Shown here in pieces: positions 2,461 to 9,344 of a stretch of DNA of 11,855 nucleotides. The stretch spans positions 1-11,855 of IMG/VR virus record IMGVR_UViG_2675903621_000013; one strand, written 5' to 3'. The position numbers were made by a program, and so were the translations under genes. Under the pieces are notes generated by a model that saw only the letters and a list, made by a program, of their open reading frames with translations, did no database searches and was not told where the DNA came from. This DNA is from a virus. Taxonomy: Duplodnaviria; Heunggongvirae; Uroviricota; Caudoviricetes. Numbering within the stretch: position 1 is the stretch's first letter; each line of letters begins with the position of its first letter.

Positions 2461-2694
2461 ATGTCAACGAAGAACAGAACCCGCAGAACAACAACCCGCA
2501 ACATCCGATTTCCAAACCAGATGATTGAACAAATTAACATCGCTCTTGTTCAAAAAGGGTCCGGGAATTTCTCAGCCTGGGTCATTGAAGCCTGCCGCCG
2601 GAGACTGTGCTCAGTAAAAAGAGTTTCGCCTGAAGCAAACAAAGAAAAGAGTGACATTACTGAATTGCTCAGAAAACAGGTCAGACCAGATTGA
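2461..2694 (+). CDS. Small ribbon-helix-helix-like protein (resembles the ylcI-type small proteins next to cos in E. coli lambdoid prophages)
   Basis: 77-aa ORF. The segment RNIRFPNQMIEQINIALVQKGSGNFSAWVIEACRRRL has the beta-strand then helix pattern typical of CopG/Arc/MetJ RHH proteins, with a basic N-terminal tail. Similarity to ylcI is from memory and unverified. Confidence 0.55.
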   Translation: MSTKNRTRRTTTRNIRFPNQMIEQINIALVQKGSGNFSAWVIEACRRRLCSVKRVSPEANKEKSDITELLRKQVRPD

Positions 2695-2751
2695 AGCAAT
2701 TTAGATAATCGTGCAGACTACGCCCCCTCATATCACATGGAAGGTACTACA

Positions 2752-3162
2752 ATGGCTCAGGTTGCCATTTTTAAACAAATATTCGATAAAGTGCGAAATA
2801 ATTTAAACTATCACTGGTTTTATTCTGAACTAAAACGTCACAATGTCTCACATTACATTTACTATTTAGCCACAGAGAATATTCATCTTGTTCTTGAAAA
2901 CGATAATACGGTTTTAATAAAAGGACAGGGTAAGGTTGTAAATGTAAGATTTTCAAAAAATAAATGCCTTATAGAAGCCACCTTAAAAGGATTCAAATCA
3001 GGAGAGTTATCATTTTACGAATACAGGAAAAATCTTGCTACAGCAGGGGTTTTCAGATGGATTACAAATATCCACGAAAACAAAAGGTATTACTATACCT
3101 TTGATAATTCATTACTCTTTACTGAGAACATTCAGAACACTACACAAATATTTCCGCACTAA
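2752..3162 (+). CDS. DUF1398-like hypothetical protein (ybcV-like moron), AT-rich
   Basis: ORF track gives 2737..3162; the ATG at 2752 (MAQVAIFKQ...) has a GGAAGG Shine-Dalgarno 8 nt upstream whereas 2737 has none, giving 136 aa. The gene is visibly AT-rich relative to flanking phage genes and is transcribed opposite to the late operon. Family assignment is from memory. Confidence 0.65.
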
Positions 3163-5729: not shown

Positions 5730-7583
5730 TTATGATGATGCCGGTGCATTTATCTCCAGCACCAGACTTTCTATCTCAACGCCATACGCTGCATTTTTGG
5801 TAATATCCGTCAGCGTCAGCGCATTCAGCCCCAGTGTCAGACTGTCTTTTATGACCTGGAATGCCGGGCCAGCCACTCCATTCAGTTTCGGAGTAACCGT
5901 GGCACTGCCGGCGGTGAACACCAGCTCCAGCGTCTGCCAGTCGTTACTGTAATTCCCGAACTCGCCCAACTTTGTGTTTCCTGCTTTCTTGTGATGCATC
6001 AGATTCAGTTTGCCGTCTGTGGTCTGGGTGAAGAACGACATCAGGAACGGGTTACCGGTACCCGTCATCGCCACGACGTCAGGTAACGCTACATCGGTAT
6101 ACAGATAAATTCCCAGACCGAACTGATTGTTGGTCAGTGCGCCTGACAGTCGAAACTTACAGCTCAGTCTGCCACCCCGTGTCAGCAGGGAGACTGCGTC
6201 ATCCACCGGGCGCGTCAGGGACCAGGTTTTATTGCTCTGCTTGGCGATCTTAAATACACCACCCGACAACTGAATTCCGCCGTCCTTAATGGTCCAGCCC
6301 TGCGCAGCAGCCTCTCCGGCTGTCGGCAGCAGGGAGATTGTGCGAACGGACGTATCTGCAGACGGACCCGATGGCGTGTCGCCGCCGGGCGAGGGTTTGA
6401 TTTCCGGCGCCTTACCACTGATGAAGGCTGAGGTGCGCCCGGCTGCGTTCAGAATAGCGGTTGCCATACGATCGGGAATAATGCCACGACGCGCCCATGA
6501 GCTGAAATGCGTCGGGCGATTTGATGATACCCAGTTTTTGTTCGTTCGGGATGCCGAACCGTAATAACCAGACCCGACAATATCAGGATCTTCTGACGGG
6601 TTGTTTGTCGGTGTATTAACTCCGCTACCATCGGTCATAAAGGGAACAAAATAAATCTGCTGGGATTCTTTACCTTTATATGCACCATATACCACTTCAT
6701 ATTGCGTACCGTGTTCTTGTTTCCACGCGTATGTCGTGTCGCCACAAATCCAGGGGACTGATGCCGGACTTCCACCGTGACACTGCGCCGCCAGCCCGGC
6801 AAGGTCAGCACGGAACTGCTGTACCATTGCAAGAAATGCTGCTGGCTGCTGGGCGTAACTGGCATTCGTCATATCGAATTCCCCCTGCATCCAGCATATC
6901 GCCAGCAAAACGTTTTTCGGGTTTTTCTGCAATGCTGCCTTCGTGCGGAAAAGCAGATCCTGATATAACGGCTTACCCACTCCCCAGCGAGCCGAATCCT
7001 GACTGGCCCCCGTGGACTCGCTGAATGTCCCCTCCGTGCCCTGGGTGAATGCCGAACCACCACGACAGCATGGTACCAGCAGGATCCCCGCATTATTAGG
7101 GATATACGGAAGCAGTTTTTTGGCAATATGTAAGCCCTGTCCGACACAGCCGTACTGCCCTTTGCTCAGGTCAGCCCGGGGATGGTTAATCGTACTCATA
7201 TCCTGAACATCATGCAGACAATGGTCAGCAGGAATGATGTCGTTAAATACGCATACTTCACCACCGGGAGTCACTGTGTTACGACGGGCCAGTTGCTTAA
7301 TGCGCGGATGGGGCGCATCGTATGAATCCGGAAGCGGAAGCCCTTCACCGTAAGCCATGGCATTGGACTGCCCGGCCAGTACGATGACGTAGTACCACTC
7401 CGGCTCAGTTGCACCACTGACGACCACATCACCTTCTGCTGCAATCGCCTGCATCAGGGTATAAGGGGTTATGGCCACCGGACTACCAAACGGCTGCCAG
7501 CCCTCTTTCAGTTTATGTGTCAGCTTTTCCGCAAGATCTGACGGCGACGCCGCCCTGACAACATCATAGTGTTTAAATGCCAT
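5730..7583 (-). CDS. nanS-p: NanS-p-type prophage sialate O-acetylesterase (DUF1737 N-terminal domain, SASA/SGNH esterase domain, C-terminal domain)
   Basis: Long ORF with the GQSN esterase motif (VLAGQSNAMAYGEG), sitting between the tRNA/toxin slot and the holin as in Stx phages. The ATG at 7581-7583 (MAFKHYDV...) has a GGTGGA Shine-Dalgarno; the ORF-track start at 7598 (MVERTM...) has none. Confidence 0.88.
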   Translation of the reverse strand: MAFKHYDVVRAASPSDLAEKLTHKLKEGWQPFGSPVAITPYTLMQAIAAEGDVVVSGATEPEWYYVIVLAGQSNAMAYGEGLPLPDSYDAPHPRIKQLARRNTVTPGGEVCVFNDIIPADHCLHDVQDMSTINHPRADLSKGQYGCVGQGLHIAKKLLPYIPNNAGILLVPCCRGGSAFTQGTEGTFSESTGASQDSARWGVGKPLYQDLLFRTKAALQKNPKNVLLAICWMQGEFDMTNASYAQQPAAFLAMVQQFRADLAGLAAQCHGGSPASVPWICGDTTYAWKQEHGTQYEVVYGAYKGKESQQIYFVPFMTDGSGVNTPTNNPSEDPDIVGSGYYGSASRTNKNWVSSNRPTHFSSWARRGIIPDRMATAILNAAGRTSAFISGKAPEIKPSPGGDTPSGPSADTSVRTISLLPTAGEAAAQGWTIKDGGIQLSGGVFKIAKQSNKTWSLTRPVDDAVSLLTRGGRLSCKFRLSGALTNNQFGLGIYLYTDVALPDVVAMTGTGNPFLMSFFTQTTDGKLNLMHHKKAGNTKLGEFGNYSNDWQTLELVFTAGSATVTPKLNGVAGPAFQVIKDSLTLGLNALTLTDITKNAAYGVEIESLVLEINAPASS

Positions 7584-7843
7584 GGTTCTTTCCACCATCT
7601 GAAAAATGATTCTTTAAAATACCTGACATGTAATACAGAAAAAACACAAAACCATACCTTAAATAAAAACCTCATCATCAAGCAGATATGCATGGATAAA
7701 CTACAAGACGAGATATAAACCACCCTGCATTTAAATAAACAATAAACAACATCAGAAAAATAATTCTGCTCTATGGTTTACAATCAAAAATATCATTTAT
7801 ACTTTTCAGAACATCACCAGCAAGGCATAAACAAGGAAACTAA

Positions 7844-8179
7844 ATGAAGTGGATTGTGATTGATACAGTTATCCAGCCATCATGCGGAATATCTTTTTCA
7901 GTCATATGGAGTAAAATAAAATTAATAATCTGGTATCAATCGGATGCTTTCTTACCTCCTGAAAGTATATTTACACTGACTCACACAGGTATCATGCTCA
8001 ATAACAAAGTGCTACCTGTAACCATTTACAACGTAGTACCATTCAATAAAACATTCTGGAATTTAATCAAAAACAGCCAGGAATGCCCTACAAATACAGA
8101 TAACGTATTGAATGAATGCTTTAATAACCGTTGCACTCTGCAAATATGTCCTTATGGGCTAAAACAACAAAGTCCATAA
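7844..8179 (+). CDS. Hypothetical AT-rich 111-aa ORF, divergent from the late operon
   Basis: AAGGA Shine-Dalgarno 6-7 nt before the ATG; possible sigma70 promoter upstream (TTTACA ... TATACT around 7766-7795). Cysteine-rich C-terminus ([26 protein letters not shown]). No minus-strand ORF of 60 aa or more anywhere in 7724-8626. No family recognised. Confidence 0.35.
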
Positions 8180-8196
8180 GGAGTTTACTCACATCT

Positions 8197-8235
8197 GACA
8201 AAATCAATATAAACAGCCCCTCCGGAGAGGGGCTG
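8197..8235 (-). terminator. Intrinsic-terminator-like hairpin (minus strand)
   Basis: Perfect 9-bp stem CAGCCCCTC / GAGGGGCTG (8214-8222 and 8227-8235) with loop CGGA. On the minus strand it is followed by TTTATATTGATTTTGT. Confidence 0.45.
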
Positions 8236-8626
8236 GAGAGTGGCGCTATGTGCCATTGCATGGTGCCGGGTGCCTCCCGGTGAATTCAGTACCAGCACCT
8301 GAATCCGCGATTATCCCATATACCTACTCGCTGATTGCCCCTCCGCACAGGGGGATTCACCATGCCAGTTTCTTTTAACAAACTCCCCGCAAACCAGACA
8401 ACAGTCAACCGCCTGAATTGTGAAGTATTTAAAAATTTCTCCCGCTAACTGATACCCGGCTAACAGTCTGGCGTTTTCTTTTTCAGCAACGGGAAAGCAA
8501 CAACCACCACACCCGCCACCAGCACACCGTCAGCCAGCACTGACATTATCCGGCTGCTGCAATGCCATTCACAAAAACAGTAAGCTATCACTTTTTACCG
8601 TAACAGGTGATAATCCAGATATGTAT

Positions 8627-8980
8627 CTACCCCAGATGAGTAATCCGAAGTTCATCCATACCACAGGTCCTGGCTATTCTGTTGTACTCCTGAACAAGAG
8701 CAAATAATTCTGAATTAGCAACCATGAACTCATCGCAAACCCTCTGTATAGCATCACTATTCAGAATAATAACGTCTCTTCCCGAAAGACGATCAGGAGT
8801 ACAGAACAAAACTGTAAAACGGCTGAAGGCCTTTGCTCGTGCTGCATTGACTATATCAATACGCTGCCTAAGGATGAAACACCCCGACGCCCCATCAATA
8901 TTCACTCTACCCACACCATATGAATGATAAATATTTAATACTGAAAAAACCATTAGACCGTATAACAAACACTCAATCAA
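8627..8980 (-). CDS. Hypothetical 117-aa ORF in the toxin slot (TTG start, no RBS); possibly a pseudogene or non-coding
   Basis: The ORF-track start is a TTG at 8978-8980. The first ATG (8951-8953) also lacks a Shine-Dalgarno. Same strand as the late operon, immediately downstream of tRNA-Arg. No family recognised. Confidence 0.3.
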   Translation of the reverse strand: MIECLLYGLMVFSVLNIYHSYGVGRVNIDGASGCFILRQRIDIVNAARAKAFSRFTVLFCTPDRLSGRDVIILNSDAIQRVCDEFMVANSELFALVQEYNRIARTCGMDELRITHLG

Positions 8981-9090: not shown

Positions 9091-9167
9091 TGGCGCGTTG
9101 TACTGGATTCGAACCAGTGACCGATTGCTTAGAAGGCAATTGCTCTGTCCGGCTGAGCTAACAACGC
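9091..9167 (-). tRNA. tRNA-Arg (anticodon UCU)
   Basis: Minus-strand 77-nt sequence folds as a canonical cloverleaf: acceptor GCGTTGT/ACAACGC, D stem GCTC/GAGC, anticodon stem ATTGC/GCAAT with loop CTTCTAA, T stem ACTGG/CCAGT with loop TTCGAAT, and an encoded CCA. Confidence 0.9.
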
Positions 9168-9268: not shown

Positions 9269-9344
9269 TGGTGGCCCTTGCTGGATTTGAACCAGCGACC
9301 TGGCGATTATGAGTCGCTCGCTCTCACCACTGAGCTAAAGGGCC
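9269..9344 (-). tRNA. tRNA with CAU anticodon, most likely tRNA-Ile2 (ileX/ileZ-like; lysidine-modified to read AUA)
   Basis: 76-nt cloverleaf: acceptor GGCCCTT/AAGGGCC, D stem GCTC/GAGC, anticodon loop CTCATAA, T stem GCTGG/CCAGC with loop TTCAAAT, encoded CCA. Close to E. coli ileX as I remember it. A Met identity cannot be excluded from sequence alone. Confidence 0.85.

Follow-up and report, generated by a model that had tools for sequence, protein, structure and literature searches.

The antisense ORF among the late genes of a lambdoid prophage is iraL, in all likelihood a lysogen-expressed RssB anti-adaptor gene

The late region of the prophage studied here raises the question of what a single short open reading frame (ORF), poor in G+C and directed against the genes on either side of it, contributes to the phage or to its host. 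The window, i.e. the whole 11,855 nt stretch of DNA that was analysed (IMG/VR virus record IMGVR_UViG_2675903621_000013), includes this ORF on the plus strand at positions 7844-8179, where it runs from an ATG at 7844 to a TAA at 8177-8179 and encodes 111 amino acids, as the first-pass annotation had described. No other ORF of at least 60 aa was found between 7724 and 8626, and the ORF is therefore the only long one in this interval, as had been claimed. The low GC content noted earlier was also evident, being 34.5% for the ORF against 48.5% for the whole window, and the 244 nt upstream of the ORF have a GC content of 29%. The statement that the ORF is opposite to every phage gene around it holds for its immediate neighbours, a DUF3927 (DUF3927/TciB-like) gene at 8460-8591 and a SASA esterase gene (nanS-p) at 5730-7598, both on the minus strand, but does not hold for the window as a whole, which includes plus-strand genes at 2461-3162. 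When the AT-rich stretch was shuffled 2000 times, two of the shuffled sequences reached 111 aa, and ORF length by itself is only modest to weak evidence for a gene. That the ORF is a real gene is settled by its homology, the purifying selection acting on it, and published experiments.

As judged by its sequence, the ORF is iraL (formerly ycgW), a gene known and characterised since 2014 and not a new one. The encoded protein is identical at 111 of 111 positions to IraL from the potB prophage of uropathogenic Escherichia coli CFT073 (WP_000871291.1), and the two coding sequences differ by two synonymous bases, with a further three differences in the 450 nt downstream of iraL. A megablast search of positions 7600-8700 against complete E. 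coli genomes returned 100% matches annotated as "anti-adapter protein IraM", and no fewer than 25 other genomes match this segment at 100% identity throughout. The protein scored 162 bits against the NCBIfam model for IraM (NF007393; curated cut-off 121 bits), with residues 1-110 aligned to positions 1-113 of the 114 in the profile. A remote-homology search had been proposed as a check, and it matched residues 1-78 to the IraM crystal chain 8twd_A at an E-value of 9e-32. In our alignment, IraM of E. coli K-12 (b1160; PDB 8TWD) is 59.5% identical to the protein encoded in the window, and the published figure for IraL and IraM is 58.9% (PMC4045071). RssC of Salmonella, the gene for which is 49% identical to iraL (PMC4045071), and the Enterobacteriaceae proteins named IraM are similarly ~110 aa long and have the domain order and the cysteine motif of IraL at 20-51% identity. 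The match to the family model, the identity to a characterised member, the fold of the N-terminal barrel and the cysteine motif thus all place the protein in the IraM/IraL/RssC family of anti-adaptors. IraP and IraD also bind RssB and stabilise RpoS as IraL does, but the literature reports no sequence similarity between anti-adaptors, and neither protein appeared in the results of any of the searches run here. The gene call by itself adds little, as iraL is already present in RefSeq under the name IraM.

The function of IraL has been established in strain CFT073 by Hryckowian et al. in 2014, who described its binding to RssB, an adaptor that resembles a response regulator, and the stabilisation of the stress sigma factor RpoS in log phase (PMC4045071). 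Deletion of iraL in CFT073 lowered log-phase RpoS and reduced its half-life from ~5 to ~2.5 min, and an iraL fragment under its native promoter restored RpoS stability in the deletion strain (PMC4045071). Log-phase RpoS also fell on deletion of iraL in Shigella sonnei, and rose in K-12 when the native-promoter fragment was transferred to it (PMC4045071). RssB and IraL copurify, and the two-hybrid interaction of IraL is confined to the N-terminal receiver domain of RssB, whereas IraM binds both domains (PMC4045071). The two anti-adaptors also differ in when they act, IraM being induced by Mg2+ starvation and IraL acting in unstressed log-phase cells according to the literature.

The ORF is therefore read as iraL, a prophage-borne paralogue of iraM and a moron that is expressed in the lysogen and encodes an RssB anti-adaptor stabilising RpoS, to which we assign a probability of about 0.93. 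In the published work, the identical protein blocks RssB from handing RpoS to ClpXP, and so raises the level of RpoS and extends its half-life about twofold. Given the orientation of iraL and the position of the cassette in the slot between Q and the lysis genes, it would be expressed in the lysogen, and Q-antiterminated late transcription would cross it in the antisense direction after induction. The net effect would be lysogenic conversion, with the host pre-loaded with RpoS. The earlier suggestion of a moron thus stands, the gene being AT-rich, independently transcribed and acquired horizontally, but the functions then named as examples, virulence and superinfection exclusion, do not, the gene being that for the RssB anti-adaptor IraL.

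A prophage of E. coli O55:H7 DEC5E matches the window at 99.7% identity, the exception being an IS3 element found only in DEC5E. This IS3-family element interrupts the large terminase gene, and the window is without the insertion (near position 220), so the terminase of this prophage may be intact. Along the late (minus) strand, the genes follow the order RusA, a Q of the DUF1133 type, a small ORF, a DNA methyltransferase, two tRNAs, the DUF3927/TciB-like gene, an sRNA of the STnc100 family, iraL (antisense), the nanS-p SASA esterase, holin, lysozyme, Rz, a YlcI/DUF1398 pair (antisense) and terminase. Thus, iraL is head-to-head with nanS-p and tail-to-tail with the sRNA. The antisense pair between Rz and the small terminase gene comprises a YlcI/YnfO-like gene (2461-2694) and a DUF1398 (YdfO/YcgX-like) gene (2752-3162), both on the plus strand and AT-rich (31-33% G+C). 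In K-12, a DUF1398 gene, ycgX, is also found close to iraM, and the occurrence of this gene both there and in the window suggests that the surroundings of iraM in K-12 are what remains, after decay, of a late region from the same kind of phage.

Upstream of the slot are the two phage tRNA genes (9091-9167 and 9269-9344, both on the minus strand). One is a tRNA-Arg(TCT), and the other has a CAT anticodon and is called Met by ARAGORN and Ile by RefSeq. Their placement between Q and the cargo slot is the same in the CFT073 prophage. The AT-rich gap between the tRNA-Arg gene and the DUF3927 gene includes a 117-codon ORF with a TTG start (8627-8980, minus strand) that matches the full profile of phrog_2873 at an E-value of 4e-68. 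It is unannotated in three near-identical RefSeq loci (L001, L002 and L004) and may be a missed phage gene.

In CFT073 as in the window, iraL belongs to a lambdoid prophage and has the phage tRNA genes on one side and the lysis region on the other, and the two loci share the protein sequence, the promoter hexamers, the 5' UTR and the downstream sRNA and DUF3927 neighbours. The backbones are different, however, as the CFT073 prophage carries an Antiterm-type Q and a truncated DUF1737 esterase gene, whereas the window has the DUF1133-type Q and an intact nanS-p. Divergent iraL/iraM alleles occupy the same slot in the same orientation beside three other Q families (Antiterm, PF03589; Phage_antitermQ, PF06530; Phage_antiter_Q, PF06323), and the arrangement therefore recurs in four backbones in all. 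With its own promoter, a nearby hairpin, the GC contrast given above and a slot between conserved phage genes, iraL has the features of a moron; the remaining feature, independent expression in the lysogen, is taken from the literature (PMC4045071).

A constant position among the late genes of many lambdoid phages, inducible Stx2c and Stx2a phages included, with phage sRNA and tRNA genes alongside, would also be compatible with a gene that mainly serves the phage. IraL could act through RssB/ClpXP or RpoS to bias the maintenance of lysogeny, induction or burst, for example by titration of ClpXP substrates or by altering SOS/RpoS-dependent induction, and the stabilisation of RpoS would then be a by-product. 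We consider this unlikely. A constitutive-type promoter directed against the late operon is typical of lysogen-expressed cargo, and iraL persists in defective prophages and, in one instance, outside a phage context. Furthermore, the published phenotypes are those of the host, and no phage phenotype was reported in the papers searched.

The first-pass annotation had further proposed that the ORF has expression signals of its own against the late operon, and each of these could be located. A Shine-Dalgarno sequence, AAGGA, is present at 7833-7837, 6 nt 5' of the ATG. The -35-like hexamer TTTACA, as read from the sequence and present also in CFT073, lies at 7777-7782, and the -10 hexamer TATACT lies at 7798-7803, with a spacer of exactly 15 nt where ~15 nt had been estimated. 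The 5' end of iraL mRNA was mapped in CFT073 by RACE as ACATCACCAGCAAGGCATAAACAAGGAAACCA (PMC4045071). The window reads ACATCACCAGCAAGGCATAAACAAGGAAACTA from position 7811 and shares 31 of 32 bases with the published 5' end, with a single mismatch at 7841. By this identity to the 5'-RACE product, the transcription start is placed at 7811 on the plus strand, and TATACT ends 7 nt 5' of it. The paper describes iraL as transcribed in exponential growth from its own sigma-70-type promoter, with sigma-70 -35 and -10 elements predicted upstream of the mapped start (PMC4045071). As the mapped start falls 7 nt after TATACT, the -10 recognised from sequence is that of the published promoter and the -35 very probably so, although we infer the exact hexamers meant in the paper. 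Four divergent alleles (P0005, P0007, P0008 and P0017) retain the -10, in the form TATACT or TATGAT, and a -35-related hexamer, (A/G)TTACA, is seen in two divergent alleles. The claim of separate expression signals is hence sustained by the match to the published start.

A generic promoter scan did not report the iraL promoter, and its three matches were at chance level; TTTACA/TATACT was missed because the scanner demands spacers of 16-18 nt. No alignment was obtained between the upstream regions of K-12 iraM and iraL, which indicates that the promoters differ and fits the different regulation of iraM. A PhoP-type promoter common to K-12 iraM was looked for and rejected, as the upstream regions fail to align.

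Over the 250 nt upstream of iraL, the window and CFT073 differ at eight positions, none of them within either hexamer. Two of the differences are proximal to the promoter, one immediately 3' of the -35, at 7783, and one in the base that precedes the start, at 7810, and the expression level in this prophage could therefore differ from that in CFT073. The 15-nt spacer is suboptimal. Together with the 29% GC of the promoter region, these features might be taken to mean that iraL is silent cargo in this prophage, either silenced by H-NS as AT-rich DNA or with a weakened promoter, and has no effect on the host. In strain JJ1886, a second copy of iraL carries a mutation in the -35 (PMC4045071). In the window, however, both hexamers, the start region and the Shine-Dalgarno sequence are intact, the segment 7600-8700 is the same in the 25 or more genomes noted above, and the coding sequence is under strong purifying selection. 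As the native promoter fragment is also active in K-12 (PMC4045071), silence of the gene is considered very unlikely, and an iraL that is expressed in the lysogen remains favoured.

The 3' end of iraL faces a full-length Rfam match to the prophage sRNA family STnc100 (RF02076) at 8205-8394 on the minus strand, with a score of 132 bits where the gathering threshold is 47. A G+C-rich hairpin at 8214-8235 lies 35 nt past the iraL stop codon. In a terminator scan, it was recognised as an intrinsic terminator on the minus strand only, where a T-tract follows, and it ends the STnc100-family sRNA. There is no T-run after the hairpin on the plus strand. [quoted passage not shown] Read-through from iraL would be antisense to the sRNA. 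In RefSeq, a partial pseudogene for a "hypothetical protein" is annotated over 8250-8375 on the strand opposite to STnc100, and this annotation is probably spurious.

To assess whether the reading frame is conserved as an intact frame had been a further check proposed for the ORF. Among 5426 complete E. coli genomes, 1446 carry the iraL ORF, with at least 99% identity in 1166. All of 30 evenly sampled matches fall under a feature annotated as anti-adapter protein IraM, though one of these matches spans just 53% of the ORF. Pairwise dN/dS values among six alleles with 60-100% protein identity were 0.09-0.21, and were similar for the core and the tail of the protein wherever dS was unsaturated. 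The frame is therefore conserved across related prophages and is under purifying selection. An exhaustive profile search identified 161 representatives at E ≤0.001, several dozen of which are ~110 aa long and match nearly the full profile. Relatives whose names were checked, from Salmonella salamae, Citrobacter, Enterobacter, Cronobacter, Intestinirhabdus and Dryocola, are called IraM. Profile matches of 470-3000 aa (P0066-P0168), which consist of 3-9 short stretches at the beta-strand positions 3-45, were set aside as probable repeat or low-complexity artefacts.

A usable AF2 model of IraL was obtained from a 41-sequence alignment, whereas 12 close homologues gave a poor model (pLDDT 62). The predicted fold, an antiparallel beta-barrel at the N-terminus together with a beta-hairpin and a single helix, matches the structures of IraM and PmrD, and residues 1-80 alone aligned to anything in the fold searches. 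In IraM, residues 1-78 form a PmrD-like beta-barrel and suffice for the complex with RssB (PMC10844676). [quoted passage not shown] Residues 1-78 of IraL (7844-8077, plus strand) are predicted to form the corresponding PmrD-like beta-barrel and helix, a putative RssB-binding core that would sit on the same face of the receiver. This geometry is extrapolated from IraM at 59% identity, and the two-hybrid results indicate that IraL and IraM bind RssB in non-identical ways. Of the 14 IraM residues listed as contacting RssB (PMC10844676), 10 are identical in IraL. All five in cluster I, which contacts the receiver-domain face, are unchanged, whereas three of five are identical in cluster II (C-terminal domain; T13S and L75I) and two of four in cluster III (linker; H63N and I64V); IraL is also four residues longer at the C-terminus. 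This pattern is compatible with binding of IraL to the N-terminal domain only, though it falls short of proof.

PmrD (PDB 4HN7, 2RQX and 2JSO) has the same unusual beta-barrel and also binds a receiver domain, that of phosphorylated PmrA. However, it is 13-19% identical to IraL, has a different target, and lacks the 33-residue cysteine-rich extension of IraL, the PmrD structures being of 81-85 residues and aligning to only about the first 80 residues of the IraL model. Searches of current Pfam with hmmscan gave no PmrD match for either IraL or K-12 IraM even at E 10. IraL shares the PmrD fold but is not a member of PmrD. That IraL is instead a PmrD-type connector with PmrA or some further response regulator, and not RssB, as its target, and that the IraM-family name is misleading, can be dismissed as highly improbable given this low identity, the missing Pfam match and cysteine tail, and the RssB copurification and altered RpoS stability published for the identical protein (PMC4045071). 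Precomputed tables label IraM-family proteins as PF11183 (PmrD), in conflict with our hmmscan results, and the PF11183 model or its thresholds may have changed between versions.

The part of IraL that follows the barrel had been noted for four cysteines within about 25 residues, interpreted as a possible disulfide-stabilised or metal-binding domain. The stretch in question corresponds to residues 81-105 (8084-8158, plus strand), with the cysteines at 81, 92, 97 and 102; the fifth cysteine of the protein is Cys14. The motif C-P-x-N-x7-C-x4-5-C-x4-C-P-[YF]-G is family-wide. Among 17 close relatives, C81, P82, C92, C97, I101, C102, P103 and G105 are invariant and Cys14 is variable. Of the 42 remote relatives examined (20-51% identity), 39 carry the motif, and the three exceptions look truncated or frameshifted. 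Each of the four cysteine columns is kept in 41-42 of 43 sequences, and these columns, with W72, are the best conserved in the protein; alignment A3 shows no variation at C81, C97, C102 and P103. The confidence of AF2 in the tail was below 50 at first and 58-72 once the deeper alignment was used, and nothing resembling the cysteine tail was found in the fold searches.

The structural work on IraM removed the tail, which was called less conserved and flexible, and reported that the full-length protein was proteolysed and insoluble (PMC10844676). The segment so described is, in the sequences compared here, the strongest conservation signal of the family, down to 20% identity. As IraM 1-78 still forms the complex, the tail is dispensable for RssB binding in IraM. 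A signal peptide and a secreted disulfide-bonded domain were considered and rejected, since a beta-strand buried in the barrel forms the N-terminus, and RssB, to which IraL binds, is located in the cytoplasm. A metal site would fit a near-invariant four-cysteine motif in a cytoplasmic protein, and our best guess from these sequences is that the tail probably binds metal (Zn or Fe-S), which would control folding or stability. The proteolysis and insolubility of full-length IraM would fit a labile metal site lost in purification. The wider proposal, a metal-binding (Zn or Fe-S) or thiol-redox module that perhaps controls the stability, solubility or activity of the anti-adaptor, is put forward as a tentative and rather doubtful one. 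No passage on zinc or cysteines in IraM or IraL was found in the literature searched.

The cassette would occupy the slot between Q and the lysis genes in which stx sits in Shiga-toxin phages. In some E. coli assemblies, alleles that are ~72-76% identical are located immediately downstream of stx2B, tail to tail with it (L005, 3206-5105; L006; L007). The same arrangement was found in 41 records of Stx2c, Stx2a and Stx2k phages, e.g. FM180578.1 (24233-24562) and NC_011357.1 (26246-26575), and the iraL-like ORF beside stx2B is unannotated in most of these phage records. No paper on a linkage between iraL and stx2 was found in the literature searched. One allele (P0007; 71% identity) is located outside a lambdoid late region, beside IS21, a ProQ/FinO-like gene, PerC and GGDEF (L011, 6001-6321; L012), which shows that the cassette also moves outside phages.

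Beyond the gene call, residual interest thus lies in the cysteine motif, a point not covered in the papers searched, together with the stx2 linkage and the convergent arrangement with the sRNA. If the tail does act as a metal or redox module, stabilisation of RpoS by the IraM/IraL family would respond directly to metal or oxidative status. On the preferred reading, the prophage carries a lysogenic-conversion gene that would raise RpoS in growing cells and so tune the general stress response of its host, a trait tied in the literature to uropathogenic and Shigella lineages.
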